Assembly: GCA_050943115.1 (NCBI GenBank)
Contig: JBMNON010000007.1
Span: 1-53,150 of the forward strand
Length of the DNA stretch: 53,150 nucleotides
Direction: 5' to 3'
Source of the DNA: Patescibacteria group bacterium
GTDB taxonomy: Bacteria; Patescibacteriota; Microgenomatia; UBA12405
The notes under the pieces were generated by a model. It was not told the DNA's origin, made no database searches, and saw nothing but the letters and a program-made list of their open reading frames with translations. How positions within the stretch are numbered: the stretch's first letter is position 1; each line of letters opens with the position of its first letter. The translations under genes were made by a program, and so were the position numbers. Shown piece by piece: positions 8,184-48,934 of the stretch.

Positions 8184-9947
8184 ATGACAAGATTCCGTTA
8201 TATTTTTGGGGTAGTTTTTATCTTTACTGCTTTCTTACGAATTAGCTCTCTATTGTCAAATCCGCCAAGCTTATTTTCTGACGAAGTCGATGCCGGTTAT
8301 CAGGCATATATTTTTAATAAGTGCAGAACAGACACTTATGGTAATAAGCTACCGGTACATTTTCAGTCTAGCGCTGACCAAAAAAGTCCTTTAAATATCT
8401 ATGGTATAGCCCTACTCAGAAGTATTACAAATAACCCGGAACTGTCAGTAAGGCTACCTTCAGCAATTTTTGGGATATTGGTGACTCTGTTCTTTTTTTT
8501 GATACTGAAGGAGTATGTTGGAAAATGGATGGCGTTAGTCGGATTTACGGTGTTCTCGCTTAATCCTTGGTTGTTTCATTATTCCAGAGCCGGATGGGAG
8601 GTGGTGGGTATGTTATTTGTGTTGATGGCCGGAATTTACTTTTGGATAAAATACCTTAACAGTAAAAAGCTTCTTTATTTACAGGCATCGCTTTTAAGTT
8701 TTGTTTTATCTTTTTATTTTTATTCAACAGCAAAATTGTTTGTCATATTTATCGGGGCCATCGTACTGGGGGTGTGGATTAAGGAAATTGTGAAAATAAA
8801 AAGGAATCACTGGCTTTTGGGAGTGGGATTAGTTCTACTGGCTTCACTGCCAATGCTAGTTGATACATTTAACGGTAAATCCGGCTACCGATTTTCTTAT
8901 ATTAATATCTTTTCAGATCCAACAACACCAAGCGAAGTTGATTTTGCCAGGTTTGAGGATGCAACCGTGGAATTGAACGGCCAAGAAAGCCTGGGGATTC
9001 GTCCAAGTTTGGTGACAAAATTTATTCATAATAAAGCTGGTGTCGTAGCCTCAAAATTTATAAGGAATTACTTGTCTTCATTTTCTACTGATTTTCTTTT
9101 TGTCAGAGGCGACGCCAACTTGAGGCAAGGATTCGGCGGACAAAAGGGCTATCTGTATTATATTGATTTACTTTTCTTGGTGTTGGGTATTAGTGGCGCG
9201 ATTGGGGCGGTAATTTATGGCAAAAAACAAGGAAAAGAAGATAAGCTAAACATATTTATGCTGCTGTTTTTACTGACAGCGCCTATACCTTTCTCGCTAA
9301 CCAGAGATTCTTCTACACCGCATAGTACCCGACTGATAATTATGATCATTCCACTAATGTATTTCTTGGTAAAGGGGGTCGGAATACTCTTTAATAAAAT
9401 TCAAAAATTCAATCAAACCTTAGTTTTGGCACTCTCAGGACTCGTAGTGCTTGTTTATGCTCTTCAGGTTTTTGATTTTCTTCATTATTACCACTATCAT
9501 TATCCGCAAATATCAGCTAGAGACTGGCATTTTGGAATCAAGGAAGCAGTAGTGAAATCAAAGGAGCTTGAGGGGGATTTTAGCCGAATATATTATGCAA
9601 AGACAGGAGAATCTTTCCTACCGTTTTTTCATTTTTATACCGATTATTTTCCTAGTAATGGGAGTTGTGCGCCGGTTCTGAATAGCCAAAGACTAGCCGA
9701 TAAAAATTTTGAAGGAGAAATTTTAGAAAACAGATATTATTTTGGAGTGGTTAATTGGGATAACTTGGTGAACAGTGAAGCGGAATGGGATAAATTTTTA
9801 TTCGTATTGCCAGAAAATGAATTAATAAAACTAAATAAATATATTTCCGAAAAAGATGACGTCGAATTAAGAGTACTTAGCCAGGAAAAGAAAATATTTA
9901 GAGAACAAGATGTGATTTCATTGGTGTCTCTGGAAAAGATCGAATAA
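8184..9947 (+). CDS. GT-C fold glycosyltransferase (ArnT/PMT-like, family 39/83)
   Basis: PPSLFSDE near the N-terminus, SVRLPSAIFG, many TMs, YSRAGWE. Confidence 0.85.
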   Translation: MTRFRYIFGVVFIFTAFLRISSLLSNPPSLFSDEVDAGYQAYIFNKCRTDTYGNKLPVHFQSSADQKSPLNIYGIALLRSITNNPELSVRLPSAIFGILVTLFFFLILKEYVGKWMALVGFTVFSLNPWLFHYSRAGWEVVGMLFVLMAGIYFWIKYLNSKKLLYLQASLLSFVLSFYFYSTAKLFVIFIGAIVLGVWIKEIVKIKRNHWLLGVGLVLLASLPMLVDTFNGKSGYRFSYINIFSDPTTPSEVDFARFEDATVELNGQESLGIRPSLVTKFIHNKAGVVASKFIRNYLSSFSTDFLFVRGDANLRQGFGGQKGYLYYIDLLFLVLGISGAIGAVIYGKKQGKEDKLNIFMLLFLLTAPIPFSLTRDSSTPHSTRLIIMIIPLMYFLVKGVGILFNKIQKFNQTLVLALSGLVVLVYALQVFDFLHYYHYHYPQISARDWHFGIKEAVVKSKELEGDFSRIYYAKTGESFLPFFHFYTDYFPSNGSCAPVLNSQRLADKNFEGEILENRYYFGVVNWDNLVNSEAEWDKFLFVLPENELIKLNKYISEKDDVELRVLSQEKKIFREQDVISLVSLEKIE

Positions 9948-14110: not shown

Positions 14111-17100
14111 TTATAGATTTCCCAGGAAGCCAAAGACTTCTTTTAGGTTGGTAATAACCAAGTCGAAGGCATTATCGGTGGCTTTTGGAGTAATAGTAAC
14201 CGTATCAATTGATTTACTAATGTTACCAGCACTATCTTTGGAAATGGCACGTAAATGATAAACCTTAGCCGGGGTGAGGCCGGAGATAATTACAACGTGA
14301 TTGTAGGAAAGGTTTTGATCTTCCTGTGACAACTGGTTGTAGTCGGTACCGGACCCTTCGCCGTACTCTACCTGACTGGTAGCCGGCTCATCAGTATTCC
14401 AGCTAATAATTAACTGGGAGAGGGCGGGTTGAGCGGTAGAATTGGACGGTGGGCTGTTAGCGCCTTCCACACTCATCTCAGAAATTTGCGGAGCACGGGT
14501 ATCAGAAGCAGTGGTAACCCTGACAGTGTCCGAGACAGCCTCGTTACCGATAATATCCTGACCCCTAACCCTTAACACGTAACCGGTATCAGGGAAGAGA
14601 CCTCGGATGATCATGCGATGATCGCCATCCCTTAGTTCAATATCAACATTATCCCGGACTAGTTCGGGGTTGTTCTCGGGATAGTAAGTGACGATGGAAG
14701 AAATGGCAGTATTGGACTCCCAAGTAACAAGTAGGGTTGATTGGGCAGTATTGGCTACCTGCTGAACACGGACATTGGTGACTCGGGGACGGGGAAGGGT
14801 TTCGAAATCAAGGATAGTGCCCTCGTATTCAGTATCCTCTTCATCGAAAGTATTGATTTTGTAGTAGTACTTAGTGCCATCCTCCAGCTGATTTAATTCA
14901 ACAGAATAGGAAGTTTCCAACTTCGAGGTACTGACTTCCTTGGCGCCGCCAAAACTAGTGGTAGTTCCGTAATAAATTTTGGCTTTGGTAGCATTTTTGG
15001 TGGTAAAGTTGACCAGAGCGCTGCTAATACCAACGTTACTCAGCCTTACCTCCTTAACTTCAGGCGGCGGTTCGGTAGTAAAATCCATTTCGTCACTTTC
15101 GCCGGTGTTACCATCTTCATCAGTCCAACGGGCTTTGAAGTAATATTTCGTGCCTGGAGATAAGTTGGTGAGCTGGATCTCGTGATCGGTTATGTGAACG
15201 GAACGATAGGCTTCGTCATCAAAATAGTTTCCGCTTGCCAAACCATAAGCAACCTTACTGTCACAAGTACGGCTGGTAGTCCAACTGATTGTAGCTTTTG
15301 AGGTGGTAATGGAGGAGGATGCGGGACCGGAAGTTAGTGGTGCCGGGACGGTATAGGAACCTTTGGGAATGATGGAAACTGCCGAAGAATAAGACGGACT
15401 GGCAATCGATTGATCAGAATTGTCGGTGGTGCCAACCCGCCAATAATAGCGCTTGGATTCTTCGACAGTGTCAACATAAGAAAAGCTAGTGGTTTGGGCC
15501 ACTTCTTCCCAGGTCAGAGCATCTTCAGAGCGCTCAATATGGTAAGTCAGGTTTCCTGTGCCTTTATAGGTGGGTTCACTCCAAACCAGGGATGATCGCC
15601 AAATAGAAACATCTTTGATAGAACTGTCGGCGACAGTTAGATTAGTAGGAGGATCAGGCAGTTCGGAATAAAGGTAGAAAGTGGCAGAGATGGTGTTGGT
15701 GGGTGAGTAGTTACTATTGCTGTCAACAGCAACGACATAAATAGTGTTGGCACCTTTTCTCAGGCCGGGAACCGTGAAGGTATCAATAGAAGTAGATTCA
15801 GTAGCTATATAGGTGGCTGAGTTAGAGGTTATGGTGGCGTAAGAAACCGGTGGTGGAGTATTAATCATGTAATAGTAGGTGTCAATAGTGTTGCCGGAGG
15901 AAGGTTCCGCCTCAGGCCAACTAAAGGCAAAACTATTGGTATCGTTTTGACCGGGAGTAACGGTAATAAAATCTCCCTGGGCAAATTTAGGGGCCTCACC
16001 ACCGTAGTTAATAAAAGCAGTTCTAAGTTCTGAAGCGTTGCCGGCACGATCGAGGATGCGAAAGAAGATAGTATTCTGGCCTAGCTGTATCAAGTCCTGA
16101 GCGGATGCGGGAAGATAAAAGGGTTGAGCAATTCCAAGTGAATAGTATTCAAGATTGGTACTGGGATCAAGCGTTTCCCCTATCCAACTATCCCGGGAAT
16201 TTATGGCGTATTGGAAGCCAAGAACCTGGGAATGTTCGTCATTGCCGGCAGTGCCATTGGTGGTGGGCCAAGTAAAAAACATATCAGAAGTGCTGGAAAA
16301 GGTACCGCTAGCGGCAGAAATGGCAACTACGTTTTCGGGAGCTGTGTTATCAAAGTAAAAGGAAATATAGTTGGTTTCGTCAGGACCGACATAAGTGTTG
16401 TTGGCAATATCAATAGTTTTGATCTTGAAATAATAAAGATCGTCGCTTGAGGTAAGCCATTCGTAGCTGCGAAGGGCAGAGTTAGAGAAATCTATTTCAG
16501 TATCGGCAGTTATAAACTGGCAAGTAGTGCCGGTAGTGCTGACAGGTGAAGAACCAAGCAGTCCTTTTTGGGTAGCCGGATCGCCTTCAAGATCGTTACC
16601 TAGGTAAACACAGTAACCTTTGACTCCTTGGGCATCGGAACCATCATCCCAGCTAAAGAAAAGATCGTTTCGATTAAACCAAACCGGCTCGTCAGAATGG
16701 GAGTATTCATGCAAAGCTTCGTCATGCGCTTTCATCTTCATATTGGCACCATTCGTCGGTCTTGATTGATCAATGATAAAAGAAGGTGTACCCGTTGCGG
16801 TAGTCCAATCTGATTCTCCCGATTTATTATCAATGGCTTTGACGCGCCAATAATAGTTATCGGTGCTGAGTTCCTGACCTTCAGAGCCTTCGTTGTATGT
16901 CCCTTCGCCAGCAGCCTGACCAACAGTAAAAGACTGAGTTCCCTGGGCTGCTTGGACAGAAACATAATCAATTATGGGAGATCCAAACTCAGATTCAGTA
17001 TCGACTTGGATTCGGTATCCGACAGTGTCGACTGCGTTAGGGTCACTCAAAACAAAGGAGAGCATCGGTTGAAGGCTATTAGTATACTGGCCGTTGATAA

Positions 17101-20100
17101 AGAACGATGATTCCGGGATGACAGGAGCTGAGGGAGGTGTGTTCATCACAACTCTAATATCAGCTTCGTCTTCAGTATTGTTACCATAGCTAACCCAATC
17201 GGAACAAAGGTTGGTAGCATCACAGGCACGAGCTTGCCAATGATAGCTCTCGGTATCGGCAAGACCATCAACAGTAACCTGAGCCGTGACAATAGCACCT
17301 GTATATACTACGCTGGCGCCGATGTTTGTGGCAACATTGGAAAATGGAGTTCCAAGTGTTTGAATTTCGACTTGCGGAGTAATCGTGTCCTCACTGTCAC
17401 CATCCTGAACCTGAAAAGTAGCAATAAATGATGATTCATCAGTGTTTCCTCCCTGTCCAATAGCGGTGGTATTATCAGTTTTAAATTGACGTAGATTAAG
17501 TGGATCAGATGATTTTCCACCTAAAAATATAGTACCAATTCCGCCATTTTGGGCACTAGCACCAGATGCAACACCCCCATTAACACTCAATACTGAAAAG
17601 TTTGTGGTGTTTGTTCCGTAATACAATGCAATTCGACCACCACCACCAGCTCCACCATCGTATGTATAGTTGGCCGTGTTGCCTCCATTTGCAGTAACTG
17701 ATCCGGAACCTATTAATGTTTCTGTAGTAACCCAGATTGATCCGCCTGATCCTCCACCATTACCATGGTAGTTGTCATAAAGCCCACCGTTACCCCCATT
17801 TGCTGAAATCACTCCATTCAGAGTGGCGGTGGCACCAATACTAATCTTGATGACACCACCACCATGACCAGCAGCATATCCGTGATGGCCACCCCCTGAG
17901 CCAAGTAAATCAGGAGAACGTTCTTCACCATAAGGCACTTTGTTCCCCGCCCGACTTTGTCCATTACCTCCTTCACCGCCATAAGCAGCACCGCCGGCTC
18001 CGTTAGAGCCGCTAACTCCGGTTCCCGGTCCATAACCATCCGAGTAGCCTTTTCCGTTAACATTTATTGAACCAGAAGGATTTACGGTAAGGTTCTCGTC
18101 AATAGCAAGTATAAGTTTATTAACTTCTTCATTGGTATTTTCTGAATGGCTTAAGGTCCCGTTTACGGTAACATTATCATAATGTCTGGCAATATTAGTT
18201 TCGAGAGTAGCTCCTGAAGGAATTGTAAGATTACCACCCGTACTAATAACAGCAAAATCGCAGCCATTGTCAACTAATATTGCTGACCAGTTAAGGGTGG
18301 TGTAATCAATAGCTGCCGAACTTTGACAGATAAAGGAAGATCCGTTTAGTAAATTAATGGTATTTACATTTAAGTTTCCCGATAGATCAAAAAATGATTT
18401 TTGATCAATAACAATCGTTGATGTGACATTAAGTGAGGAAGAATAATCTATGTTGGAGTAATCAGTAATAGTAATATTGGATACATTAAGTGAGTCTGGC
18501 AATACTGTTTTGGCAACTTTAGACCGTAAGGAAGACCAGTTAGGATCGTTGTTGTCAACAATTAGATCACCATAACTTATTGAACTTGATTTGAGATATA
18601 TTGTACCAGCACCGCCTTTTTGACAGGTAGAGGCTGCGCCGCTAGGTTTCCCTCCATATGCATATATTCTATCGATAGCAAAGGGCAAGCTATCATAATA
18701 AATTGCAATCCGGCCACCACCCCCACCTCCCCCATCCTTATCTGAATAGCCATCAGCAGAACCACCGCCAGATGCACTGATAGTGCTGCCACCTTTTACT
18801 TCATTGGCATCGATCCATACGGAACCACCGGCACCCCCACCACCACTGCCATCATAACTATAACTTGGACCGGCATTTCCATTTGCAGATATCGGGCCGC
18901 CAACGTCAATATAACCACCAACAATAAACTTAATTGCACCACCACCGGCACCGCCGTATCCGGAAACTTGACCTCCCCCACTTCCCAAAGTCACTGGCTG
19001 AGTAGCTGAACCATAAGGAACAATACTCCCTGCCCGTGTTCTACCATTACCGCCATTACCGCCATGAGCAGCACCACCAGATCCATCTGCTCCATCTGTA
19101 CCCTCGCCCGTACCATAGCCAATACCAAAACCTTTGCCATTAACATTGACCGATCCGGATGAACTTATTGAAAGATTGCCGCCAATAGTATAGTTGATTT
19201 TGTAAACTTCGGAATCGATATTTTCTGTATGAGTTAGGACTCCGTCGATAAAAACATTACTATAGCTTCGAGGTACATTCGAGTGAAGGGTAGAACCAGA
19301 CGGAATAGTTAAATCGACACCGCTGCTTAAGATAGCAAAGGTGCCGCCATTATCGACTAATATGCCTCCGTTCCAATCGATAGTGTTATAAACGATATTT
19401 GCACCAAGTTGGCTAAATAGGGTGGCATTGTTGTGGACAATTAGATTGTCAGCAGTAATTCCTCCAGATGATTCAAGAAATGATTTTTGGTCGAGTGTAA
19501 GGCTTGAAACCACATTAAGGGAAGAAGTATAGTCGATGTTGGAGTAATTAGTAATGGCAAGATTATCCAAAGTAAGCGTGGAAGGAAGTGTTGTTTTAGC
19601 TACCCGGGTACGGGAAGTAGACCAATCATTGTCCTTGTTGTCTATTACAAAATCGCCATTAGTTGCCGTAGCGGCTTTTAAGTAAATTGTGCCGGCACCG
19701 CCTTTTTGGGTTGCACTGTGATCCCCCTGAGGGATGCCTCCCTTGGCTGATATCTGACTTAACCCAACAGAATTTGTATCGTAATAGAGAGCAATGCGAC
19801 CACCACCACCACCACCACCATCACCATAATAAGTATTGGTAGCACCACCACCATCCGCACTTATAGTGCTACTACCAGTAATCTCGTTTGCATTAATCCA
19901 AATTGAACCTCCAGAACCACCTCCAGAACCGTGTGAATAAAAATCAGAAGTAACACTATCGCCTCCATTTGCAGATACCGGACCGCCCACATTAAAAGTA
20001 CCAGTGATAATAAGCTTAACAGCACCACCGCCATGTCCTGCCTGAAAAGTATTATTATGACCGCCCCCACTTCCTATCGTTGCTGGCTGAGTAGCTGAAC

Positions 20101-21799
20101 CGTAAGAAATTACGCTTCCAAGTCTGGTTTGACCATTACCGCCATTGCCTCCGTGAGCTGCGCCTCCGGCACCCTTGTCTCCGTCAGCGCCATCTCCAGT
20201 ACCATTGCCATCAGAATAACCTTTACTATCTACATCGATAGAACCGGTAGAGTTTATTGTGAAGTCACCATCAACGTTATAGTTGATTTTGTAGGTGTCA
20301 GAGTTAGTATTGTCGGTATGAGTTAATGTGCCATTTATGGTGACACCTGAATAGCTTCGAGGAACATTGGCATGTAAGGTAGAGGTGGCTGGCACAATTA
20401 AGTTACCTCCTCCACTTAACATCGAGAAGGTACCTCCGTTATCGACTAAAATACCACCAGTCCAATCAAGAGAATTATAGTTAATATTCGCGCCAACATG
20501 ATTAAAAAAGTAGGCATTGTGATGTACAACAAGATTATTAACGGTAGCATTGTTGCTTAAACCAAAAAAGGCTTTTTGGTCAACTGTGAGGGATGATTCT
20601 ACATTAAGTACCGAAGTATATTCGATATCGGCAAAATTTGTTATTGTTAGATTATCGACTGTAAGATTGGAAGGTAGGGGGGTTTTGGCTAAGCGTGGGC
20701 GAGATGTGGACCAAACGATATCTTCATTGTCAACGACAATATCGCCGTATGTCGCAGAAACATTTTTTAGGAAAATTGTACCGGCGCCACCCTTTTGACA
20801 GTTGGTGTGATCACCATCAGGTTTAGCGCCTTGTACAGATATTTGTTCCAGAGTGACGCTACTTGAAGAATAATATAGTGCAATACGTCCACCGGCTCCA
20901 CCACCACCATCACCATAATAGGTATTGATAGTCCCTCCGCCTTCAGCAAGTAAATTACCACTACCATTTAAAGAGCCCGTTTGAATCCAGATTGATCCGC
21001 CGGAACCACCGCCGGAACCATGAGAATAATAATCAGAAGTAGAACTTCGAGCACCATTTGCAGAAATTGTTCCGTTAATCGTTGTTGTTCCCGATACTGT
21101 TAACTTTACTGCTCCTCCACCAACGCCAGACTGATTATTGTAGTCACCCCCTCCGCTTCCTAAAGTAACAGGTTGAGTTAGCGAACCGTAAGAGATAACC
21201 CCACCGGCCCTGGTCTGACCATTACCACCGAAACCACCGTGAGCAGCACCTCCGGCACCTCCGTTACCATCAGTACCCTCTCCCGGACCGGAACCTTTAC
21301 CATACCCTTTTGAATTAGCGTTTATAGTACCATGAACATAGGCGTTGCCGGATTGAACATCAATGTTGATTTTGCCGACTATTGAAGCACCGGAACCGGC
21401 AGTATGGGTAATGTTGCCTCCCGGATAGACAGTTAAATCACCGGCAGCTAGAGTAAGGGCACCAAGGGATATGGCGTCATAGGAGAACTCAAGAGATGAG
21501 GCAGCAGTATTATCTATTTTTCCTAATATAAGGGAATTTATAGTGACCGGTGAAGAAAGAATAACAGTAACATTGGAATCTATGAGAACGTCGTCGTCAG
21601 CAGCGGGGACAATATCAGTGTCCCAATTGAGAGGGTCAAGCCAGGAAGTACCATCGCCACCACCGTCCCAAATAATACTAGCGGCAGCCCGAATGTACCA
21701 AGTATGGAAAACAGGGAAGAGATAGACACTTGAGAAAAGACTGATGAAAAAAGCCGTCAGAATAAATACTCGTTTATTAAAAAGTTTCCTAATTTTCAT
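14111..21799 (-). CDS. Giant (2562 aa) surface protein: four ~362-aa Gly-rich beta-repeat units plus C-terminal FN3/Ig-like domains
   Basis: N-terminal anchor or signal; repeated KG(Y/F)...GAA(H/Y)GG.GGNG...GSGGG...GGRIA units; FN3-like segments (ISWTTS...YYFKARW, LTPAKVYHLRAIS). Confidence 0.9.
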   Translation of the reverse strand: MKIRKLFNKRVFILTAFFISLFSSVYLFPVFHTWYIRAAASIIWDGGGDGTSWLDPLNWDTDIVPAADDDVLIDSNVTVILSSPVTINSLILGKIDNTAASSLEFSYDAISLGALTLAAGDLTVYPGGNITHTAGSGASIVGKINIDVQSGNAYVHGTINANSKGYGKGSGPGEGTDGNGGAGGAAHGGFGGNGQTRAGGVISYGSLTQPVTLGSGGGDYNNQSGVGGGAVKLTVSGTTTINGTISANGARSSTSDYYSHGSGGGSGGSIWIQTGSLNGSGNLLAEGGGTINTYYGDGGGGAGGRIALYYSSSSVTLEQISVQGAKPDGDHTNCQKGGAGTIFLKNVSATYGDIVVDNEDIVWSTSRPRLAKTPLPSNLTVDNLTITNFADIEYTSVLNVESSLTVDQKAFFGLSNNATVNNLVVHHNAYFFNHVGANINYNSLDWTGGILVDNGGTFSMLSGGGNLIVPATSTLHANVPRSYSGVTINGTLTHTDNTNSDTYKINYNVDGDFTINSTGSIDVDSKGYSDGNGTGDGADGDKGAGGAAHGGNGGNGQTRLGSVISYGSATQPATIGSGGGHNNTFQAGHGGGAVKLIITGTFNVGGPVSANGGDSVTSDFYSHGSGGGSGGSIWINANEITGSSTISADGGGATNTYYGDGGGGGGGRIALYYDTNSVGLSQISAKGGIPQGDHSATQKGGAGTIYLKAATATNGDFVIDNKDNDWSTSRTRVAKTTLPSTLTLDNLAITNYSNIDYTSSLNVVSSLTLDQKSFLESSGGITADNLIVHNNATLFSQLGANIVYNTIDWNGGILVDNGGTFAILSSGVDLTIPSGSTLHSNVPRSYSNVFIDGVLTHTENIDSEVYKINYTIGGNLSISSSGSVNVNGKGFGIGYGTGEGTDGADGSGGAAHGGNGGNGRTRAGSIVPYGSATQPVTLGSGGGQVSGYGGAGGGAIKFIVGGYIDVGGPISANGNAGPSYSYDGSGGGGAGGSVWIDANEVKGGSTISASGGGSADGYSDKDGGGGGGGRIAIYYDSLPFAIDRIYAYGGKPSGAASTCQKGGAGTIYLKSSSISYGDLIVDNNDPNWSSLRSKVAKTVLPDSLNVSNITITDYSNIDYSSSLNVTSTIVIDQKSFFDLSGNLNVNTINLLNGSSFICQSSAAIDYTTLNWSAILVDNGCDFAVISTGGNLTIPSGATLETNIARHYDNVTVNGTLSHSENTNEEVNKLILAIDENLTVNPSGSINVNGKGYSDGYGPGTGVSGSNGAGGAAYGGEGGNGQSRAGNKVPYGEERSPDLLGSGGGHHGYAAGHGGGVIKISIGATATLNGVISANGGNGGLYDNYHGNGGGSGGSIWVTTETLIGSGSVTANGGNTANYTYDGGAGGGGRIALYYGTNTTNFSVLSVNGGVASGASAQNGGIGTIFLGGKSSDPLNLRQFKTDNTTAIGQGGNTDESSFIATFQVQDGDSEDTITPQVEIQTLGTPFSNVATNIGASVVYTGAIVTAQVTVDGLADTESYHWQARACDATNLCSDWVSYGNNTEDEADIRVVMNTPPSAPVIPESSFFINGQYTNSLQPMLSFVLSDPNAVDTVGYRIQVDTESEFGSPIIDYVSVQAAQGTQSFTVGQAAGEGTYNEGSEGQELSTDNYYWRVKAIDNKSGESDWTTATGTPSFIIDQSRPTNGANMKMKAHDEALHEYSHSDEPVWFNRNDLFFSWDDGSDAQGVKGYCVYLGNDLEGDPATQKGLLGSSPVSTTGTTCQFITADTEIDFSNSALRSYEWLTSSDDLYYFKIKTIDIANNTYVGPDETNYISFYFDNTAPENVVAISAASGTFSSTSDMFFTWPTTNGTAGNDEHSQVLGFQYAINSRDSWIGETLDPSTNLEYYSLGIAQPFYLPASAQDLIQLGQNTIFFRILDRAGNASELRTAFINYGGEAPKFAQGDFITVTPGQNDTNSFAFSWPEAEPSSGNTIDTYYYMINTPPPVSYATITSNSATYIATESTSIDTFTVPGLRKGANTIYVVAVDSNSNYSPTNTISATFYLYSELPDPPTNLTVADSSIKDVSIWRSSLVWSEPTYKGTGNLTYHIERSEDALTWEEVAQTTSFSYVDTVEESKRYYWRVGTTDNSDQSIASPSYSSAVSIIPKGSYTVPAPLTSGPASSSITTSKATISWTTSRTCDSKVAYGLASGNYFDDEAYRSVHITDHEIQLTNLSPGTKYYFKARWTDEDGNTGESDEMDFTTEPPPEVKEVRLSNVGISSALVNFTTKNATKAKIYYGTTTSFGGAKEVSTSKLETSYSVELNQLEDGTKYYYKINTFDEEDTEYEGTILDFETLPRPRVTNVRVQQVANTAQSTLLVTWESNTAISSIVTYYPENNPELVRDNVDIELRDGDHRMIIRGLFPDTGYVLRVRGQDIIGNEAVSDTVRVTTASDTRAPQISEMSVEGANSPPSNSTAQPALSQLIISWNTDEPATSQVEYGEGSGTDYNQLSQEDQNLSYNHVVIISGLTPAKVYHLRAISKDSAGNISKSIDTVTITPKATDNAFDLVITNLKEVFGFLGNL
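17600..21400 (-). repeat. Four diverged in-frame tandem units within the giant gene
   Basis: Equivalent Lys codons of the KG(Y/F) motif at 21308, 20222, 19133 and 18050 give spacings of 1086, 1089 and 1083 bp. Boundaries approximate. Confidence 0.85.
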
Positions 21800-33019: not shown

Positions 33020-33685
33020 TCAAGCCATTTCTAATTCTTTTTTAAGGTTGGCGAGACTGGGAATGGTTATGTTTCCGTTTTTATCTACCATGATTAGCTT
33101 CTTTAGCTTGATCTTTTTTAGCGTTTTGCTTAGGTACTCCCGAGTAATACAGAGCATGGCAGCCAGTTGTTCCTGAGTTAAAACAACCCGTAGTTTGCAA
33201 CTATTGCCTTTAATGCTTCCATAGAAATCCGATAGCATAAGTAATTGGGAAATTATCCGCGAATAAATATTCCTTTCCCCCAATGTGAGTGACTGGCTAA
33301 GAATAAAAATGTTGTTGAAGGATACTTGTTGCATGTAGGCACTGGCAAAAGCTGGCTCGTTTTGAAGAAGAGATTGGAATTGGTTACAATCCAGCCGGTA
33401 AACCAGACAATCCGATAGTGCCTGGGTGTAAGTAGTCAGGTGACGCTGGGGAATCACACTTCCCACCTTGCCAAATATTGCTCCTTCTTCCCAAATACCA
33501 ATGATTTGTTCCACACCATCTCCCTTGCTGGCAAAAAGTAAAGCTTGTCCGGATGCCAGATAATAAATGCCTTGAGCAGTGTCTTCAGGCCGAACAAAGA
33601 GCTGGCCTTTTTTATAATTAATTTTCAGGCCATGTTCACGAAAATGAGGCAAGGCAGTTTGAGTTAATATCTTGAGCTTTTGCAT
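33020..33685 (-). CDS. Crp/Fnr family transcriptional regulator (second copy)
   Basis: cNMP-binding fold; HTH LTQEQLAAMLCITREYLSKTLKKI. Confidence 0.92.
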   Translation of the reverse strand: MQKLKILTQTALPHFREHGLKINYKKGQLFVRPEDTAQGIYYLASGQALLFASKGDGVEQIIGIWEEGAIFGKVGSVIPQRHLTTYTQALSDCLVYRLDCNQFQSLLQNEPAFASAYMQQVSFNNIFILSQSLTLGERNIYSRIISQLLMLSDFYGSIKGNSCKLRVVLTQEQLAAMLCITREYLSKTLKKIKLKKLIMVDKNGNITIPSLANLKKELEMA

Positions 33686-39013: not shown

Positions 39014-39580
39014 CTAGCCTAATGTCTCGAGGTACCTATCGACACTGTCCTGGTCGACGTGCCAACGCTTAGCAGCTCCATCTCCAGTTGTCGATGCCTG
39101 AAGTGTACCCTCGTCGATTAGTTGAACCACCTTGTAGTCGGGAAGACTGAGTCTCCGAGCTGTGCTAGTTAAACTATCTGCTCTGTACGGTGCTCCCCGA
39201 CCTTTCCTCTTTGGAGGTTGTGTTAGTTCACTGCCAGGTTTTGGTGTCATGACTTCTTTGTCGTTTCGATGAAAAGAGAAGCCAGACTCCTCCCGCTGGA
39301 GACGCAAACCCATGACCCTGTAGATATAACTCTCAAGCCACTGATTGAACTCAGATATCGTATCGAGAAACCTATCAGTACCAGTGATCCTAACCACGTA
39401 CGATTCGAGCTCATCATCGGAGATGAACACGACATGGCTACCCGATTCGCTTTTGACAAGAAAGCCGCCGATCAGGCAGGAAGCCAGGATTTGTCGAACC
39501 TCCTTCTTGTTTGGAGTACCACAATAGTAGCAATAGTTAACCGTTATGGCGACTTCCCGTCCACACTCAAAGCACTTCAT
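39014..39580 (-). CDS. Zn-ribbon plus C-terminal excisionase-type HTH protein
   Basis: N-terminal CFEC...CYYC; C-terminal SLTSTARRLSLPDYKVVQLIDEGTLQAS...KRWHVDQDSVDRYLE; SD AAGGAG. Confidence 0.78.
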   Translation of the reverse strand: MKCFECGREVAITVNYCYYCGTPNKKEVRQILASCLIGGFLVKSESGSHVVFISDDELESYVVRITGTDRFLDTISEFNQWLESYIYRVMGLRLQREESGFSFHRNDKEVMTPKPGSELTQPPKRKGRGAPYRADSLTSTARRLSLPDYKVVQLIDEGTLQASTTGDGAAKRWHVDQDSVDRYLETLG

Positions 39581-41376: not shown

Positions 41377-41601
41377 TATATCGGAATCGCACCCTTGAGA
41401 TTATTGAGAACTATCAGGGCCATCCTGTTTCTAGGCTAATATATTTATGCTCCCTAGTTCTAAAAACTTTATATTAGCTTTTAGCAAGATAAATAAAGCT
41501 TTTTTGAATATAACCGAGATGGAAACAGTCAAGGCAAGGTGGGGTGAGATCAAAAGAATTCAGAAATCGTATCAAGTAAACTCAAACATGGCTACATCAC
41601 T

Positions 41602-41633
41602 CTAAAACATTAATAATTATTAATGTTTTGTCT
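41602..41633. repeat. Palindromic 32-bp repeat, copy 1
   Basis: CTAAAACATTAATAATTATTAATGTTTTGTCT; 26-bp perfect palindrome core. Confidence 0.9.
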
Positions 41634-43369
41634 TATAGATTATTTAGCTTATTAGCCAAGGCTTCCTGCTCTTTATATAACTCTTCGTCTTTGTATGTGT
41701 AATTTATTTCAGACTGGCTGAGCCATTGATTACTTTCCATCTTGGTAACAATAGTTTGAATGTTGCCGATTCTTATTGAAATGATCTCGTTAATTCGATC
41801 GTAATCTGCCTTATTTCTTTCATAAGCACTACCCCACTCTTTGACCTTCTGCCAACTGGGCTGAATATCCCGCAAGCTATTTAATACCGACTTCCAGCCA
41901 TCAATATCTGACTTTTTATAATTTGGAGGAACATAACCTCCGAACTCGTTAACTACCACCTGAACTTCGCAATCATTGATTTTTCCTACATAAACCCCAA
42001 GCCCGATATCCTGGAATCGTTTATCCAGGAGGTTTTCTTTTGTTTCATATTCCAGCCAGTAATTGGCAAGTTCTTCGGCGTCATAATAGCCAGTGGTACT
42101 GATTTCTCCGGTAAGAATATTATTATAACCGGCATCTTTAATAGCTTTGTCATAAGGGTATTTGCTTTTATCTTTTTCCAACTTACCAACTTCATTATTT
42201 TCAATAATTGATTTGGCTCGGGCGAGGGCGGCTTTTTCCAACTTTTCATTTCTCTTTAGCGGCTTTAGATTATTGTCGGTTCTTATTTTATTTATATGAG
42301 TGTAGTAATCGTCAATATTAAAAGAAGGTAATCCATGACTATCACCGTCTTTGCTAGCATCACGTTGTCTACTAATTAACTCTGCTTGTTTGCCAACGGG
42401 CAAGATACTACTGATTTCATTTAGTGATACAAAGCCTAGTTCTCGTGAATCTTTACTGCGTTTGCGATTATCACCCATGACAAAGACATAACCGTCGGGA
42501 ACGACAACCTTTTTACACTCACCTAAAAAAGCTGCCCCGAATGTGGATCTTGGCTTAGCAATATAAGGTTCTTTGACGATTTGACCGTTTAGGTAATAAT
42601 AACCGTCGCGTATTTCTATCTCATCTCCAGCAATTGCCACAACCCTTTTGACATAATCATTGACCTGACCTTGATCATTGGCGGTTCTACCAGAGCTGAA
42701 TATGACAATATCTCCCTTTTGAGGCTTGCTAATTAGCTTGTTAATAAATGAATAGCTATACATTTTGATACTCTCTTTATCTAGAATGGTCGGATTCATT
42801 GAATTACCAAGCACATCTCTTGAAAATGAAGTAAGCCCAAAGATATAGAAAAGGCCAAAGAAACCTATTATCCACATAGGCAATAAAATAAAGAAGCCAA
42901 AAAGTGTGTCACCAAGATTCCGCATAACAACAAAAGGTAAGAATACTAATGACCCGACGAATCGTAACATCTTCTTAAATCTATTTAGGTGGGGGTTGGT
43001 AGCAAGGGAATAATGAAGAGCAAAGGAAACCGTCATTACAATGAATGCAATTATTCCAACAACGACAATAGAAATGAGGCTTATTTGGGAGTAAATACTC
43101 GTAAGGTTCTTATCACTGGTATTAGACAGGACAACCGCGACTACGCCGAACATAGGCATGCTAATAAGCCAAATTATTCTGGATAAGGAAGCTGCTTTCA
43201 TCCATTTGGATTTTTTTGGCTTGGTACGGTTTGGGTTTTTATCACATGTTAGCTCGTGGCTGTCTGATTCCTTTTTTGTTTCAAACTCCTGTTGGCAATA
43301 ATCACAAGTCCAGACATAATCTTTTTTAACTTTTGTTTTTTGGGGCTTTAACTCGTGTCCTGATTTCAC
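41633..43369 (-). CDS. Fusion protein: Zn finger, TM segments, signal peptidase I (S26) domain, CAP/SCP domain
   Basis: CDYC..F.....HE..C; catalytic GNSMNPT and YVKRV, GDNR..SKDSR; CAP-like INKIR....L.RNEKLE.AA...GE.....W...ENLL...IGLG. Confidence 0.85.
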   Translation of the reverse strand: MKSGHELKPQKTKVKKDYVWTCDYCQQEFETKKESDSHELTCDKNPNRTKPKKSKWMKAASLSRIIWLISMPMFGVVAVVLSNTSDKNLTSIYSQISLISIVVVGIIAFIVMTVSFALHYSLATNPHLNRFKKMLRFVGSLVFLPFVVMRNLGDTLFGFFILLPMWIIGFFGLFYIFGLTSFSRDVLGNSMNPTILDKESIKMYSYSFINKLISKPQKGDIVIFSSGRTANDQGQVNDYVKRVVAIAGDEIEIRDGYYYLNGQIVKEPYIAKPRSTFGAAFLGECKKVVVPDGYVFVMGDNRKRSKDSRELGFVSLNEISSILPVGKQAELISRQRDASKDGDSHGLPSFNIDDYYTHINKIRTDNNLKPLKRNEKLEKAALARAKSIIENNEVGKLEKDKSKYPYDKAIKDAGYNNILTGEISTTGYYDAEELANYWLEYETKENLLDKRFQDIGLGVYVGKINDCEVQVVVNEFGGYVPPNYKKSDIDGWKSVLNSLRDIQPSWQKVKEWGSAYERNKADYDRINEIISIRIGNIQTIVTKMESNQWLSQSEINYTYKDEELYKEQEALANKLNNL

Positions 43370-43559
43370 TACGTTTAGTATATTACAAAAACTATAAGAT
43401 ACGTTTCATTAAATCTATTAATCTAAGCTGAAATTTTGAGAAATAATTCAAATAAACTTATACTTGAGTCTTATATCAATTTTTGCAAAGTCTTTTGGAA
43501 TTGATTAAATTTTGAACCTAATAAAATAGTGCTTATGTTTCATATTAAGTGGTCCTGTC

Positions 43560-43591
43560 CTAAAACATTAATAATTATTAATGTTTTATCT
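43560..43591. repeat. Palindromic 32-bp repeat, copy 2
   Basis: CTAAAACATTAATAATTATTAATGTTTTATCT; 31/32 identical to copy 1; 28-bp perfect palindrome 43561-43588. Confidence 0.9.
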
Positions 43592-43593
43592 GG

Positions 43594-44037
43594 TTATGCC
43601 TGTTGCCTTTTAAGAGCTTTCCAATCCAAGAATTCTACCTCACCACTTTCATCAACCAAAAATACATATAAGTTTAGTTTGTCACAGACATCATAAGGCA
43701 AACGTCTTTTTACTAGATCTCTAAAAGAAGCGGGGTAGCCTACCCCATATTTATATCTATATTTATAGCCTCTGGCTCCAGCTGACCTCATGCGGGTTAC
43801 AATCTGTCCAATAGCTAAATTAAAATTGACTTCTCTATGTGAGTTGGGAAATTTGGCTTTCGGGCTAGCATCACCTTTGCATTCAATTAACCAATAACGA
43901 GAAACTTTATCATTCCTAACTTTGATATCTACTCCATGCTCCTTTAGAGTTTTTGATTTTAGACTTTTACTCCAACCGTTTGTAGTTAGGTAATCGATAA
44001 TCCTTTCTTGAACAAAATCTTCTGTTAATAGAGTCAT
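43594..44037 (-). CDS. PD-(D/E)XK restriction-endonuclease-like protein
   Basis: ED.VQ..I..YL...GW, GVDIKV, LIECKG, AIGQI motif order. Confidence 0.75.
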   Translation of the reverse strand: MTLLTEDFVQERIIDYLTTNGWSKSLKSKTLKEHGVDIKVRNDKVSRYWLIECKGDASPKAKFPNSHREVNFNLAIGQIVTRMRSAGARGYKYRYKYGVGYPASFRDLVKRRLPYDVCDKLNLYVFLVDESGEVEFLDWKALKRQQA

Positions 44038-44038
44038 G

Positions 44039-45157
44039 TTAGTTAGGTATTCTGCTTGCTAATAAATTATGCAGTGTCCGGTCTTCAATTTTGAATAACT
44101 CATTTTTAATACCCGATATATTTTTTCCAATAAATATTTCCGGAGCATCAGGATTGATGATGTAATGCTCTACATTACTAAAACCTAACTCACGAAGTTT
44201 ATTAAGTAAACAAACTACAAAAAAGTTTATCGATATATAGAAGTAAGGTTCCCTCGGTTTAATAATATTTATCAAATCCTTAAAGATGAAATCATCACTA
44301 TATACAGTATCTCCATGGATAATCTTGTTTCTTAGTTTATAGAATTCCTCTGCCCAAATCTGGTGTAAGGTCAGTTGTTCATAACCTGTAACTTTACCGT
44401 AATTTACTATTGGATATTTATACTGTGTAAATTTTTTTGAGTACCCAATGGTTGAATATTTGAGAATATTGTTTCTAAGTTGAGGTCGCCCTGTCTCTCC
44501 GAATAATAATTCAAAAGCCATAACCATTAGTAAAATTCTTGAATGCCAAGATTGTTCATGACTATTCCGATAGGCATTAAAAAGCGGATTTAACGACTGA
44601 ATAATTTGGCTTTTACCTTTATTTGTTGATGAATTTGTCAGACAATCTTCTAAAGCATTTAGTATTTTCAAATCAGGATTGAAACTAATTGGTAGATTTA
44701 CATGCTCAGGTTTTTGAAACGCAACCTGTCCAATCTGATATCCGCCAGTAGTTATACGATGAATCGCTCCGGCTTGGGTAGAAATGCCAGTCTCACCAAC
44801 TATGAATCTCTGATAGAAAACTTCAAAGTTATCACTAGTAATAAATGACCATTGATTATTCTCCAAAATCCCAAGTAGTAGAAGTATATTTTTTAGTGAT
44901 TCGATTTTTGATATGGTTAACTGAGTTGGGTTAGAAAAGTTTATTTTATCGCCAGTAATTATTGCAGGATTTGGTACGGGATTTCCTTTGTAAAGCTGAT
45001 AGCAGCCTATTAGTTTATCAATGTGAGTTCTCAGGGCAGTATCCTTTATAAGCTTTATTTTGAATTTATTGTAAGGCCATAATTTCAATCCATTAAACTG
45101 AACCATTCCATTAAGTGGTAGATATGGCAGTAGAATTATTGTTTTATATACTTTCAT
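44039..45157 (-). CDS. HEPN-domain protein (ApeA-like architecture)
   Basis: N-terminal alpha/beta region; C-terminal MAFELLFG...FYKLRNKIIHG with the Rx4H motif. Confidence 0.72.
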   Translation of the reverse strand: MKVYKTIILLPYLPLNGMVQFNGLKLWPYNKFKIKLIKDTALRTHIDKLIGCYQLYKGNPVPNPAIITGDKINFSNPTQLTISKIESLKNILLLLGILENNQWSFITSDNFEVFYQRFIVGETGISTQAGAIHRITTGGYQIGQVAFQKPEHVNLPISFNPDLKILNALEDCLTNSSTNKGKSQIIQSLNPLFNAYRNSHEQSWHSRILLMVMAFELLFGETGRPQLRNNILKYSTIGYSKKFTQYKYPIVNYGKVTGYEQLTLHQIWAEEFYKLRNKIIHGDTVYSDDFIFKDLINIIKPREPYFYISINFFVVCLLNKLRELGFSNVEHYIINPDAPEIFIGKNISGIKNELFKIEDRTLHNLLASRIPN

Positions 45158-45861
45158 AATTCATCAGTAAGAACTGCCAATTCATCAATAGTTTTTCCTG
45201 TTCCTTTTTGGGCTATGTATTCCAAAAAATTAAATACGTGGTTCGTAATCCCCTTAAATTCTGGAATAATAAATGGTCGATGTAGAGAATAGTTTCGTTT
45301 AACCAAGAGGTAATCGAGTAATTGTTTACTATTAGGATATGGAGTCGTCATTCTAGTAATTCCATCTAGCTTCTGACCTTTTTCTTTTTTCTTGGCTGCT
45401 ATTTCGTCAGTAGATTGTTTATTATCAAAGTCCGTAAAATCTATAAGACTTGGTAAGTGGTCTTTGATATAACCCAGCATAACAACTTCAGTAGGGTCTA
45501 GCTTACTTTTATTCTGGCTTAATTTTAATGGATGGACCAAACCATTTGGAACTGGTTGCTTAATTTTGTTGATAGCGTAGCCTTTAGCCAAAAATATCCC
45601 CTTAAATAGGTACTCACAACCTAATGAGGTAAAAGCGTTTTCTAACCGAGGATTTTTCAATATTTCTTGACGTTTTCTTTCATCCCATGGAGTATGGATA
45701 TTAGAAAGTCTTTGGGCTTCTTTAATCAAATAGGCTCCTGTCCTAATAAAATCGTCCGATTCTTGAGATGTGAATATATGTCTTACAAACGAACTATTTT
45801 TGAACTTATCTATTGACGGATTAAACCATAATCTATTTATCTGATTATGAAGTAGTGCCAT
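45154..45861 (-). CDS. Putative HEPN-like protein
   Basis: SLGCEYLFKGIFL helix (ExxxK) and KRNYSLH (Rx4H); ATGA overlap with the next gene. Confidence 0.55.
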   Translation of the reverse strand: MALLHNQINRLWFNPSIDKFKNSSFVRHIFTSQESDDFIRTGAYLIKEAQRLSNIHTPWDERKRQEILKNPRLENAFTSLGCEYLFKGIFLAKGYAINKIKQPVPNGLVHPLKLSQNKSKLDPTEVVMLGYIKDHLPSLIDFTDFDNKQSTDEIAAKKKEKGQKLDGITRMTTPYPNSKQLLDYLLVKRNYSLHRPFIIPEFKGITNHVFNFLEYIAQKGTGKTIDELAVLTDEL

Positions 45862-46818: not shown

Positions 46819-46974
46819 TCAGCCGTCAGAGCTGTCGCAGTAGTCGCAGGCATCCTGATCACAGGAGTCGCTATCGCAACCCCCGTAGTCGCAGCTGCCT
46901 CCACCACTGTCGCAGGAGTCGCAGGCCGTCATGACAACCTGCTCGTCATCGATGAGAGAGATAATGTGGTTCAT
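46819..46974 (-). CDS. Putative RiPP precursor peptide, 51 aa with seven Cys-Asp motifs (absent from the ORF track)
   Basis: MNHIISLIDDEQVVMTACDSCDSGGGSCDYGGCDSDSCDQDACDYCDSSDG*; SD AAGGAG inside the last codons of the rSAM gene; starts 1 nt after its TGA. Confidence 0.85.
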   Translation of the reverse strand: MNHIISLIDDEQVVMTACDSCDSGGGSCDYGGCDSDSCDQDACDYCDSSDG

Positions 46975-46975: not shown

Positions 46976-48286
46976 TCATTCTCCTTGTTGCAGAATCCTT
47001 TTTGTTACAAGTTGGCCGATAAGATTGGTCGCCTCAGGATGGTCCAGACCGAGGTAGCTCCTCAGTTCTTCAAATAGTACATCACCTCCTTTCCTTTCTG
47101 TGGCAAACTTGAATAGTTCGGGAGATACAGGGACCCAGCTCCTTACACCTATACACAGTAGACCCCCAAACGATTCCTCCCGAAGCTTTAACTTTGGGTT
47201 GAACCTCAGTGGAGTCTGGGAATCAAACTGTGAGACAGGCCGAAGCGAAGCAAGTGGCCTGAGTGGAATTCGATCGAAGTTGCAGTATGGATCTGGCTTG
47301 TTGATTGAGCCATTTACCAATAGCGCTTCGATTTTACACCCACCGCCACAACGCTTCTTGAGATTACACGATTGACACTCGTCAGGGATCCAAGCCTCTT
47401 GGCGCCACTCCTCCATGCTATCCCAGGCTTGTTGAATACCATCGAACACGCTGCCGTAGCACTGAGGTGCGTGGGAACAAGGCCGTATCTGTCCGTTGAA
47501 ACCGATAGTACAACTGGTTTTGCCAGCGGTACAGCTTCGTGAGGATCCGAACAACCTTCTGGTGGTATCATTGCCAAACGAACAGCCCGGATAAAACTCC
47601 AAAGAGTCTATCCTTAGTCCAAGTTCTTGTTTGGCTCTGGCCAGTTCATCGAGCATAAACCCGAATTCTGCTGGCGTTAACCGATAGGCCGAAAAGTCCT
47701 GGCAGTTTCCCGGAACGGCCGCCTTGGTTGCTGAAAAGGTGTTGACCCCCAGCTTCTTAACAAAGCAAGCAGTTTCGAAGATTTCTGTCAGGTTGAGCTT
47801 GGTTACTACCATGTTAACAGTAACGTTCAATCCTGCGTTAAGAGCACGCTTGATGCCTCTTGCTGTCCTGCTTCTCGAATTCCTCCTTTGAGTGATTAGA
47901 TCGTTTGTCTCGGAGTTACCCGAGGGCAGTGATGCCAGAACGGATTTGATGCCAAGCTCTTTAAGCTTTGCAGCATCACTATCGGTTAGCGTTGAGAGAT
48001 TGCTGTTGAGATAGATATCTACTCCAGCTTCCCGCAGCATAACCAGATACGGTAACAATGCACCAAGGACCAAGAGTGGTTCTCCGCCAGTTACGGTCAC
48101 CGCAAGAACACCATTCCTGATGATCTCGGTAACCGAGGCTAAATAGTACCTCCTTGTTTCTTCAGTCAATGGTTGTACCGCCGTCTCGTCTTCACGCCAA
48201 TGGTTATAACAATGAACGCAATTGTAATTGCATTCAGGAGTCACTTCCCACTGGACATAGACAGGTGCCGATAGTTTCCTAAACAT
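46976..48286 (-). CDS. Radical SAM/SPASM peptide-modifying enzyme with probable C-terminal PqqD-like (RRE) domain
   Basis: CNYNCVHC, TGGEP, NSN; SPASM CTAGKTSCTI...IRPC...CQSCNLKKRCGGGC...DPYC; C-terminal LREESFGGLL...winged helix. Start ATG 48286 with SD AAGGAG. Confidence 0.92.
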   Translation of the reverse strand: MFRKLSAPVYVQWEVTPECNYNCVHCYNHWREDETAVQPLTEETRRYYLASVTEIIRNGVLAVTVTGGEPLLVLGALLPYLVMLREAGVDIYLNSNLSTLTDSDAAKLKELGIKSVLASLPSGNSETNDLITQRRNSRSRTARGIKRALNAGLNVTVNMVVTKLNLTEIFETACFVKKLGVNTFSATKAAVPGNCQDFSAYRLTPAEFGFMLDELARAKQELGLRIDSLEFYPGCSFGNDTTRRLFGSSRSCTAGKTSCTIGFNGQIRPCSHAPQCYGSVFDGIQQAWDSMEEWRQEAWIPDECQSCNLKKRCGGGCKIEALLVNGSINKPDPYCNFDRIPLRPLASLRPVSQFDSQTPLRFNPKLKLREESFGGLLCIGVRSWVPVSPELFKFATERKGGDVLFEELRSYLGLDHPEATNLIGQLVTKRILQQGE

Positions 48287-48934
48287 GGCGCTCTCCTTAA
48301 TAGAGAATAATATGTCCACAATATGTAAAGGTGCTTGAAGGCTAGTCTTCAAACCTTCACTCAAGTTAATACTTGATGGCATATTCTACCATTCTTTACG
48401 TTGTTTACAACATGACTGTCCTATATGTTTATTTAATCCGTACTACACTAAAGGGTTGGTTTTATTAAAATAATTGGGGTTGAAGTTTTTTCTTAGACAA
48501 AGACTGTTCCCCGCCATCACTGAAATATGGAATCCAGCGAGAAAGAATGATCTTGGGGACGGAACAGTTTCTGGCTAGGGTTGCTTGTTATAGGTTAAGC
48601 TCAGATGTTAAAATTTGTAGTACTCTAAAATTTCCGTTTTTTTGCTGGAGCCGGCAAGAGGTTCGAATCCTAACCAGTTTCAACAAAAAACAGTGTCGAG
48701 CGTTACTAAAGATATCTTCCGTATTTCCGGGACTAAGGAGGAAAATCCGATGGCGAAAAAAACTAATTACTGTCTTGGTTAGTTTGGTAATTACCTATCA
48801 GTCCGTAACTTTCTACTGGGTTAGGAACAGCCGGCTTGCGACAAAAGAACGGAAATTATTTAACTCTCAGAGATTCGAAATTTTTTTGGTAATCTAGTGC
48901 CCTCCTGGGTTGACTTGTTTCTTGAAAATGAGCA

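Follow-up and report, generated by a model that had tools for sequence, protein, structure and literature searches.

What kind of signal is a short, perfect palindrome that occurs twice in a stretch of bacterial DNA, once on each side of a single gene? This question is raised by 53,150 nucleotides (nt) from a Patescibacteria group bacterium (assembly GCA_050943115.1, contig JBMNON010000007.1, positions 1 to 53,150), which we will call the window throughout. There, a 32-nt unit brackets lepB-CAP, a gene in which a signal peptidase I (S26) domain is fused to a CAP domain, together with the 190 nt upstream of it. A preliminary description of the locus had taken the two copies for gene-cassette recombination sites of the dif-module or integron type, with a copied AT-rich terminator or an operator as the alternative. 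We find that the unit is a real, non-random and conserved DNA or RNA signal, and its position, its potential for structure, its duplication and the constraint on its sequence across species are all directly observed. We tentatively read the two copies as paired hairpins that would delimit the lepB-CAP transcription unit and would also be recognised by a sequence-specific factor, and we will weigh this reading against those that treat the element as a recombination site, an operator, a mobile repeat or a by-product.

A perfect palindrome carried twice

The duplication itself stands as first described. The two copies are identical at 31 of 32 positions, the sole mismatch being G41630 in copy 1 versus A43588 in copy 2. 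Scanning the window with up to three mismatches returns two copies only (0.00 expected from 100 shuffles), and a scan for half-sites gives no more matches in the window than chance does. Each copy is built on the core AAAACATTAATAATTATTAATGTTTT, centred on TAATTA, which is itself palindromic. The symmetry is perfect over 26 bp in copy 1 (41604-41629) and over 28 bp in copy 2 (43561-43588), and these are the longest perfect hairpin palindromes of the window. The proposed geometry of two 11-bp arms around a 6-bp spacer fits copy 2 but not copy 1, and the part that is conserved between species covers only 24-25 nt (41604-41628 in copy 1, 43562-43586 in copy 2). Within the dyad, ATTAAT half-elements lie 10 bp apart, centre to centre. 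On the lepB-sense strand, the core sits in conserved flanks that are not symmetric (AGA-NN-core-T-R-G), which gives the element a polarity and makes its two copies direct repeats in the strict sense. Beyond the 32-nt unit, no significant similarity was found between the flanks outside or inside the two copies, or between the region upstream of lepB and the region of s52 itself, the small gene that converges on lepB from the other side of copy 1.

Both copies abut the stop codons of unrelated genes, again as first noted (Table 1). The short plus-strand reading frame that ends inside copy 1 had been regarded as a remnant at 41449-41605; it starts in fact at 41447 and corresponds to s52, a small gene that is conserved in relatives.

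The same pair in a second species

Searching relatives for the motif, as had been advised, gives the observation on which most of the argument depends. The same core is present at the same two places in L146, another Shapirobacteria-like species, whose LepB-CAP is 63% identical to that of the window. L146 carries AAACATTAATAATTATTAATGTTT(T) twice, 1967 nt apart. Its upstream copy follows the stop codon of the gene preceding lepB at a distance of 4 nt; its downstream copy follows that of lepB at the same distance and contains the TAA of the s52 homologue. The preceding gene encodes an unrelated OB-fold (tRNA_anti-like) protein without homologue in the window. When the two loci are aligned, 25 of 25 positions are identical at both palindromes, while identity amounts to 36-60% in non-coding and 40-82% in coding DNA, and the 25-nt core, including its TAATTA centre, is the same in all four copies of the two species. 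Because both sites are fully identical amid non-coding DNA of such low identity, the element is, on this alignment, under selection at the level of the sequence: the sequence itself is selected, and not the ability to fold alone. This conservation in L146 excludes chance as well as the neutral persistence of an old duplication.

The comparison also locates a boundary. The window and L146 are syntenic precisely up to the outer edge of copy 2, where synteny is lost and the unrelated upstream genes of the two species end 2-4 nt from the element. Copy 2 stays with the lepB block though the upstream gene differs, as is expected of an insulator that belongs to lepB.

A proposed role as hairpins at the ends of the lepB-CAP unit

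On either strand, each copy forms the same A/U hairpin of 11-13 bp, set between an A-run and a T-run; as the palindrome is perfect, the convergent mRNAs carry an identical hairpin. In a 56-nt context the RNA folds with -8.3 to -11.8 kcal/mol (z -2.7 to -4.2 versus shuffles), and the z-scores of the DNA fold range from -3.4 to -5.7. The hairpin lies 0-5 nt from the stops that it abuts, which are those of lepB and s52 in both species (the TAA of the latter being inside), of the 147-aa gene of the window and of the OB-fold gene of L146. Direct reading in the s52 sense shows the stem to be followed by UUU(U)NNUCUUAU, i.e., UUU(U)-N-N-UCUUAU, in three of the four copies, and by UCUGG in copy 2 of the window. 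In the same three copies, this conserved, pyrimidine-rich tail complements the TAAGA-NN context that is conserved at the stop; the fourth keeps only AGA-NN.

Our preferred, still tentative, reading is that of paired, bidirectional 3'-end or insulator hairpins that bound the lepB-CAP unit and are in addition read by a sequence-specific factor. Both copies would be a lineage-specific cis-element marking the two ends of the unit: the convergent transcripts of lepB and s52 would both stop at copy 1, and that of the upstream gene would stop at copy 2, which would also shield the lepB promoter region. The hairpin is weak, and its sequence, loop included, is frozen between species; the element would very probably be read as well by a dimeric DNA-binding or hairpin-binding protein, which might serve as a roadblock, for instance, or regulate lepB and s52. 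We infer both that the element acts as a terminator or insulator and that there is a factor which binds it. The terminator alternative that was raised at the outset fits at least as well as the recombination proposal, but a copied terminator alone does not explain why the sequence itself is conserved. L129 and L140, two related loci described below, carry other hairpin-forming repeats at equivalent positions, which we count in favour of this reading. A terminator palindrome that doubles as a protein-binding site is exemplified by the yobI terminator, which is also a site for the LexA repressor (bioRxiv 10.64898/2026.08.19.745784).

Several points weigh against it. The isolated hairpin reaches only -6.5 to -7.8 kcal/mol and has a single G-C pair, and in the lepB sense its tail is limited to UUUU, followed by a conserved purine stretch (AGR). 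The clear terminators of the window are by contrast GC-rich, with -16 to -25 kcal/mol, and stand 18-30 nt after the stops, so the element is a poor canonical terminator. It resembles bidirectional intrinsic terminators in having a palindromic hairpin with A-run and T-run, placed directly after stops and between convergent genes, and its DNA could serve both as hairpin and as dyad binding site, as in the yobI-LexA case. However, its stem is almost purely A-T, it exists in two identical copies, and neither its sequence nor its loop varies between the two species, which have 63% identity in LepB. In ordinary terminators, the sequence of stem and loop is not normally preserved between species that have diverged this far, nor is it obvious why two identical ones should be needed. 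Moreover, the model does not predict gene-order breakpoints at the edge of the element, nor short repeats bracketing gene blocks near s52. Finally, the one RNA-labelled run that covers the region (X25) gave sparse contigs of low depth, which do not define 3' ends.

Four proteins encoded in the window, all on the minus strand, may be able to bind the palindrome: two Crp/Fnr-family regulators and two excisionase-type HTH_17 (helix-turn-helix) proteins, one of them with an N-terminal zinc ribbon (230-880, 33020-33685, 39014-39580 and 7492-7929).

Repeats and breakpoints in other relatives

The palindrome is absent from four other LepB-CAP loci (L124, L125/L128, L130 and L147). In L124, a GC-rich canonical terminator follows lepB in its place. 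L129 and L140, two strains of one related species whose LepB is 73% identical to that of L146, have a different direct repeat of 49 nt (78% identical) that brackets lepB and its upstream region (L129 7818-7866 / 9748-9796), with a local alignment score of 43 against 20 +/- 2.5 for shuffles. Its upstream copy ends in a stem followed by T7 on direct reading, a stem that the minimum free energy structure of RNAfold did not return. The outer edge of this copy lies within 2 nt of the point where L129 and L140 diverge. Beyond this point, L129 carries a restriction-modification island, which sits where L146 has copy 2, and L140 carries a gene for an OLD-family nuclease. The two strains share only a 5.7-kb block, from the upstream repeat to the start codon of s50, their homologue of s52.

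This block holds four genes between lepB and s50 (Abhydrolase_11, 274 aa, 55 aa and an M16 peptidase) that are absent in L146 and in the window. Two perfect palindromes of 24 bp, palA and palB (L129 9899-9922 / 13313-13336), enclose these genes, and one of the two lies 5 nt after the s50 stop. palA and palB are identical at 26 of 30 positions; the four differences are two double changes that preserve pairing, and each palindrome is symmetric in itself. In Escherichia coli, template switching can correct quasipalindromes, and this can yield perfect symmetry and pair-preserving changes without any selection. Such a process being possible, symmetry and pair-preserving changes do not discriminate between a function in RNA and a function in DNA.

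In this clade, short repeats thus recurrently bracket gene blocks next to s52, and breakpoints of gene order recurrently fall at these elements. We also asked whether the 49-nt repeat of L129 or the flank of palA is a remnant of the s52 3' end, as serial integration would leave, but the similarity was not significant versus shuffles.

The region upstream of lepB is variable and rich in defence genes: Mrr, an EcoRI-type methylase and GmrSD in L129, the OLD-family nuclease in L140, a SAVED-domain protein in L146, and a module of two genes for 235-aa and 372-aa proteins in the window. L125 and L128, which have an identical LepB protein, cease to be syntenic about 19 nt upstream of the lepB start codon.

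Searches for further copies and for structural variants

The locus occurs in metagenomes from anaerobic digesters, sludge, landfill and wastewater, with a DNA depth of 10-15x in runs X1 and X2. With a 60-nt query around copy 2, four whole metagenome assemblies (X1, X2, X3 and X9) returned only the contig of this locus, with one match per copy, so that the element does not form a family of dispersed repeats. A partial match of 18 nt on a different contig of X1 and X2 was treated as an AT-rich chance match. An exact 22-mer search of the contigs of the Joint Genome Institute (JGI) metagenomes gave two unrelated contigs only, IMG/VR gave no match, and Rfam gave nothing above noise. A GTDB scan with degenerate arms found more than 119 palindromes of the same shape in unrelated taxa, none of them with a TAATTA centre among the matches listed. 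The element flanks no other gene in the JGI metagenomes, in IMG/VR or among the GTDB matches listed.

A precise deletion between the copies, which the cassette proposal calls for, was not seen. In the contigs that cover the region from 16 DNA runs and one RNA-labelled run, there is no deletion, inversion or other joint and no empty site, the assembled contigs being near-clonal, which hides rare forms; variation within the population amounts to a few single-nucleotide polymorphisms in the contigs of the DNA runs. The window encodes no recognisable integrase, tyrosine recombinase, resolvase or transposase domain, and no RAYT.

Comparison with known recombination sites

Does the element belong to one of the known families of recombination sites, as had been proposed? 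dif sites are 28 bp long, with two different 11-bp arms (that of XerD being more conserved than that of XerC) around a 6-bp centre that varies, and the sites on either side of a dif module are inverted (PMC6449649). The element resembles dif and pdif sites and the Acinetobacter dif modules (PMC6449649) in its length of about 28 bp, its AT-richness, its palindromic inner part, its conserved sequence and the fact that it flanks a single gene. However, its arms are exact reverse complements, so that XerC and XerD arms cannot be told apart, and only copy 2 reaches 28 bp. Its TAATTA centre, in a place where dif sites are usually asymmetric, is symmetric and invariant in the four copies of two species, and, unlike those of dif modules, its copies are direct in both. 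By these sequence criteria the element is not a dif or pdif site, and its absence from the JGI contigs of related candidate phyla radiation (CPR) bacteria argues against a broadly conserved dif.

Integron attC sites are 57-141 bp long and imperfect, with extrahelical bases, R''/L''-L'/R' boxes and a GTTRRRY core in R'; their cassettes are usually promoterless and lie near intI/attI and a Pc promoter. The element shares with them a palindrome that starts just after the stop of a co-oriented gene and an AAC...GTT at the stem ends. In contrast, it is perfect and covers only 24-28 bp, its GTTTTAG matches the R' core only at GTT, lepB has its own conserved -10 motif, and the window holds no integrase. 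The dif-module or integron proposal is hence not supported by these comparisons. What does stand of the wider idea of recombination is that breakpoints fall at the outer edge of copy 2 and that, in a related species, other repeats and palindromes bracket lepB and the four-gene block. From general knowledge, the element can also be compared to the crossover sites of serine invertases and resolvases (hix, gix, res site I), which are dyads of about 26 bp, and it can be parsed as 12-2-12 around a central AT; but the half-sites bear no resemblance, there is no recombinase gene, enhancer or accessory site, and no inversion was seen.

Weighing the alternatives

Outside these families, a recombinase whose gene lies elsewhere in the genome could still recognise the palindrome or act at it as a crossover site. 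Such an enzyme might be Xer-like, might be a small serine recombinase that works on a 12-2-12 site, or might recognise hairpins, and through it blocks near s52 would be inserted, lost or exchanged and the site duplicated. In three species, short direct repeats without flanking homology indeed enclose lepB with its promoter; their lengths and identities are 32 nt and 97%, 33 nt and 94%, and 49 nt and 78%. The breakpoint at copy 2, the island of L129 at the equivalent position, from which L129 and L140 differ outward, and the four-gene block between related palindromes all fit this account. Conservation at the level of the sequence is moreover typical of recombinase core sites, and the asymmetric flanks would give the direct orientation. 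Yet we find it unlikely, since the 53 kb hold no recognisable recombinase domain, the near-clonal contigs of the 16 DNA runs, in which rare forms would be hidden, show no joint from a deletion, an inversion or a circle, and the element flanks nothing else in the JGI metagenomes, in IMG/VR or among the GTDB matches listed. A fully symmetric centre would leave strand exchange without polarity, and identical, active direct sites would keep excising lepB, a gene of housekeeping type, yet the bracket has persisted to 63% LepB identity. A crossover between two different palindromes should also leave hybrid arms, whereas palA and palB are each internally symmetric. A more daring version, which we consider doubtful and somewhat less probable than the general one, is that the palindrome by s52 is the attachment site of an unrecognised Patescibacteria system that depends on a palindrome or hairpin, with its recombinase elsewhere, and that inserts or swaps promoter-bearing blocks such as lepB-CAP, the defence islands and the four-gene block of L129. 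Such a system would be functionally similar to integrons or to integrative mobile elements exploiting Xer (IMEX), its site being a perfect dyad of 24-28 bp that is duplicated each time.

The two dyads might instead be a pure pair of DNA operators, on which a dimeric regulator would control lepB and/or s52 by looping the 1.96-kb segment or by blocking RNA polymerase, the hairpin being irrelevant. The perfect dyad and the strict conservation of its sequence, centre included, in four copies of two species are what an operator would show; two sites only per assembly would suit a dedicated regulator, and DNA-binding genes are at hand (a 188-aa protein with a zinc ribbon and an excisionase-type helix-turn-helix, 39014-39580, and the two Crp-family regulators). 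This too we judge improbable. Neither copy overlaps a recognisable promoter, copy 1 lying between two stops and copy 2 about 175 nt upstream of the lepB -10 motif; given that the promoter motif adjoins the start codon, copy 2 does not qualify as a classical operator. No regulator is common to the window and L146 in the DNA compared, and the pair-preserving changes of palA and palB speak for base pairing, or for mutation that corrects palindromes, rather than for recognition of half-sites. An operator would explain the conservation of the element but not its positions, as a strict abutment to stop codons is not predicted. Repetitive extragenic palindromes (REPs) and their doublets (REPINs) are likewise short palindromes at gene 3' ends, with a sequence specific to a species or lineage, and a patchy occurrence (in the window and L146, but not in L124, L125, L129 or L130) could be that of a small selfish repeat, REP-like or resembling a MITE (a miniature transposable element with inverted repeats), that spreads to gene ends. 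REPs, however, are scattered over a genome in tens to hundreds of copies, in association with a RAYT gene. Here there are two copies only, in the window as in the four whole assemblies, all at this locus and around one gene, and no RAYT or transposase was found in the window; their presence at the same orthologous places in two species indicates inheritance and not spread, which makes this origin very improbable. As for a by-product without function, left by an earlier duplication or insertion, or for a resemblance by chance, 0.00 copies are expected, and the full identity at both sites against 36-60% in the neighbouring non-coding DNA means that L146 effectively refutes it; we give it next to no credence.

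The bracketed gene and its neighbours

The features of the locus are listed in Table 1. The -10-like motif of lepB-CAP, TGTAATATACT, lies 7 nt before its GTG start codon, and the corresponding TGTAATATAMT is found 7-9 nt before the lepB start in all relatives examined (L124, L125, L128, L129 and L146, besides the window). No Shine-Dalgarno sequence accompanies it. Because this motif is so near to the start codon and no Shine-Dalgarno sequence is present, the arrangement suggests that the lepB mRNA is leaderless or nearly so. Copy 2 and this promoter do not overlap.

LepB-CAP is a mosaic. Residues 61-470 are closest to L124 (63-86%), and the C-terminal 108 residues (471-578) are 69-72% identical to the L129/L130/L146 clade and 38% to L124, which suggests an old recombination inside the gene. 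As this C-terminal part is nearest to that clade, the 3' end of lepB, copy 1 and s52 would share their history with the L146 clade. Homologues of LepB-CAP are found in Candidatus Shapirobacteria, Microgenomates and Patescibacteria. A viral origin of lepB-CAP or s52 was rejected, since IMG/VR holds no relatives of either.

The s52 family comprises proteins of 44-57 aa with the motif MLPSS..II.A...I.KAF......E.IK.RW.EIKRLQ, of which the MLPSS N-terminus is invariant. The protein of the window is 69% identical to its L129/L140 homologue, and the differences are mostly at third codon positions. Its AlphaFold model consists of two helices (pLDDT 79) without the strand of a ribbon-helix-helix fold; it is uninformative, and we did not retain s52 as an obvious DNA binder. 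The 5' end of s52 is unusually conserved at the DNA level: short contigs of other organisms (runs X12 and X18) match its first 45 nt or so (41448-41493) at 85% or more, the similarity beginning at the start codon. In L129, the start codon of an s52-family gene is lost exactly at a strain-specific rearrangement junction.

The genes upstream of copy 2 encode proteins of 147, 372 and 235 aa and, like lepB, lie on the minus strand. The 147-aa gene is not kept at this position in relatives, L146 having its OB-fold gene there, and its protein has no sequence match in the PDB. The 235/372 pair is a conserved two-gene module of Patescibacteria, with 60-68% identity across Shapirobacteria, Roizmanbacteria and WWE3, and the 147-aa gene is not part of it in other genomes. 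Elsewhere (L133, L135, L137 and L138), the module stands beside type I or II restriction-modification genes, DUF4145, a large serine recombinase, or genes for a type IV secretion system (T4SS) or conjugation. It has no match in Pfam or PADLOC, and its GC content drops to 32-33% in the window; we regard it as a candidate new defence module. For the neighbouring unknown proteins, PADLOC, Pfam, NCBIfam and the PDB gave nothing useful. A 202-aa methyltransferase of L138 was considered as an ortholog of the 202-aa methyltransferase of the window, which would have marked an empty site, but the two show no similarity.

Table 1. Features of the window, with coordinates on the 53,150-nt stretch
Feature	Coordinates	Strand	Description
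s52	41447..41605	+	52-aa conserved gene, convergent with lepB; stop codon inside copy 1
Copy 1 of the 32-nt unit	41602..41633	-	Between convergent lepB-CAP and s52; last base is the third base of the lepB-CAP stop; s52 stop TAA (41603-41605) inside
lepB-CAP	41633..43369	-	578 aa; zinc-ribbon/transmembrane N-terminus, signal peptidase I (S26) and CAP domain fusion
lepB upstream region inside the bracket	43370..43559	-	190 nt; weakly conserved versus L146 (36-58%); -10-like motif at 43377-43387
Copy 2 of the 32-nt unit	43560..43591	-	Ends 2 nt before the stop codon of the 147-aa gene (43594-43596); 190 nt upstream of the lepB-CAP start
147-aa gene	43594..44037	-	Ends just before copy 2; weak NOV_C / PD-(D/E)xK-like match (GVDIKV...IECKG), below the Pfam cut-off
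235/372 pair	44039..45861	-	Two-gene module
51-aa peptide gene	46819..46974	-	Cys/Asp/Ser-rich
Radical SAM/SPASM gene	46976..48382	-
2562-aa protein gene	14111..21799	-	Fibronectin-III/Ig-like and purple-acid-phosphatase N-terminal-type domains
Canonical GC-rich intrinsic terminators	4047-4074; downstream of 5087, 39014 and 46819		dG -16 to -25 kcal/mol; e.g., AAAAATGGCCC-TTTTGA-GGGCCATTTTT after an RRM-domain gene

Other observations in the window

The 51-aa peptide (MNHIISLIDDEQ...CDSCDSGGGSCDYGGCDSDSCDQDACDYCDSSDG) is encoded directly downstream of the radical SAM/SPASM gene and is followed by a strong GC-rich terminator. The two genes look like a precursor-maturase pair of the SCIFF/ranthipeptide type of ribosomally synthesized and post-translationally modified peptides, to judge from the sequence. 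The 2562-aa protein is probably a surface protein, and an ABC transporter/FtsX pair comes after its gene. The cumulative GC skew of the window (1-53150) climbs steadily, peaks near 38 kb and stays level from there on; this could be a turning point a few kb from the palindromes, in a window that is short and rich in islands.

What the element means for Patescibacteria

Almost nothing is known of the transcription signals, the regulators and the gene-exchange mechanisms of the uncultured Patescibacteria (CPR). The element described here is short, precisely delimited and selected; it flanks a signal-peptidase gene on both sides, overlaps the end of s52 and borders a variable, defence-rich region. 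If it is a terminator or insulator that is read by a protein, it would serve as a bait for a CPR DNA- or RNA-binding factor and would be an example of sequence-specific control of 3' ends. Were it a recombination site instead, the exchange of defence islands beside lepB in these reduced genomes would have an explanation.

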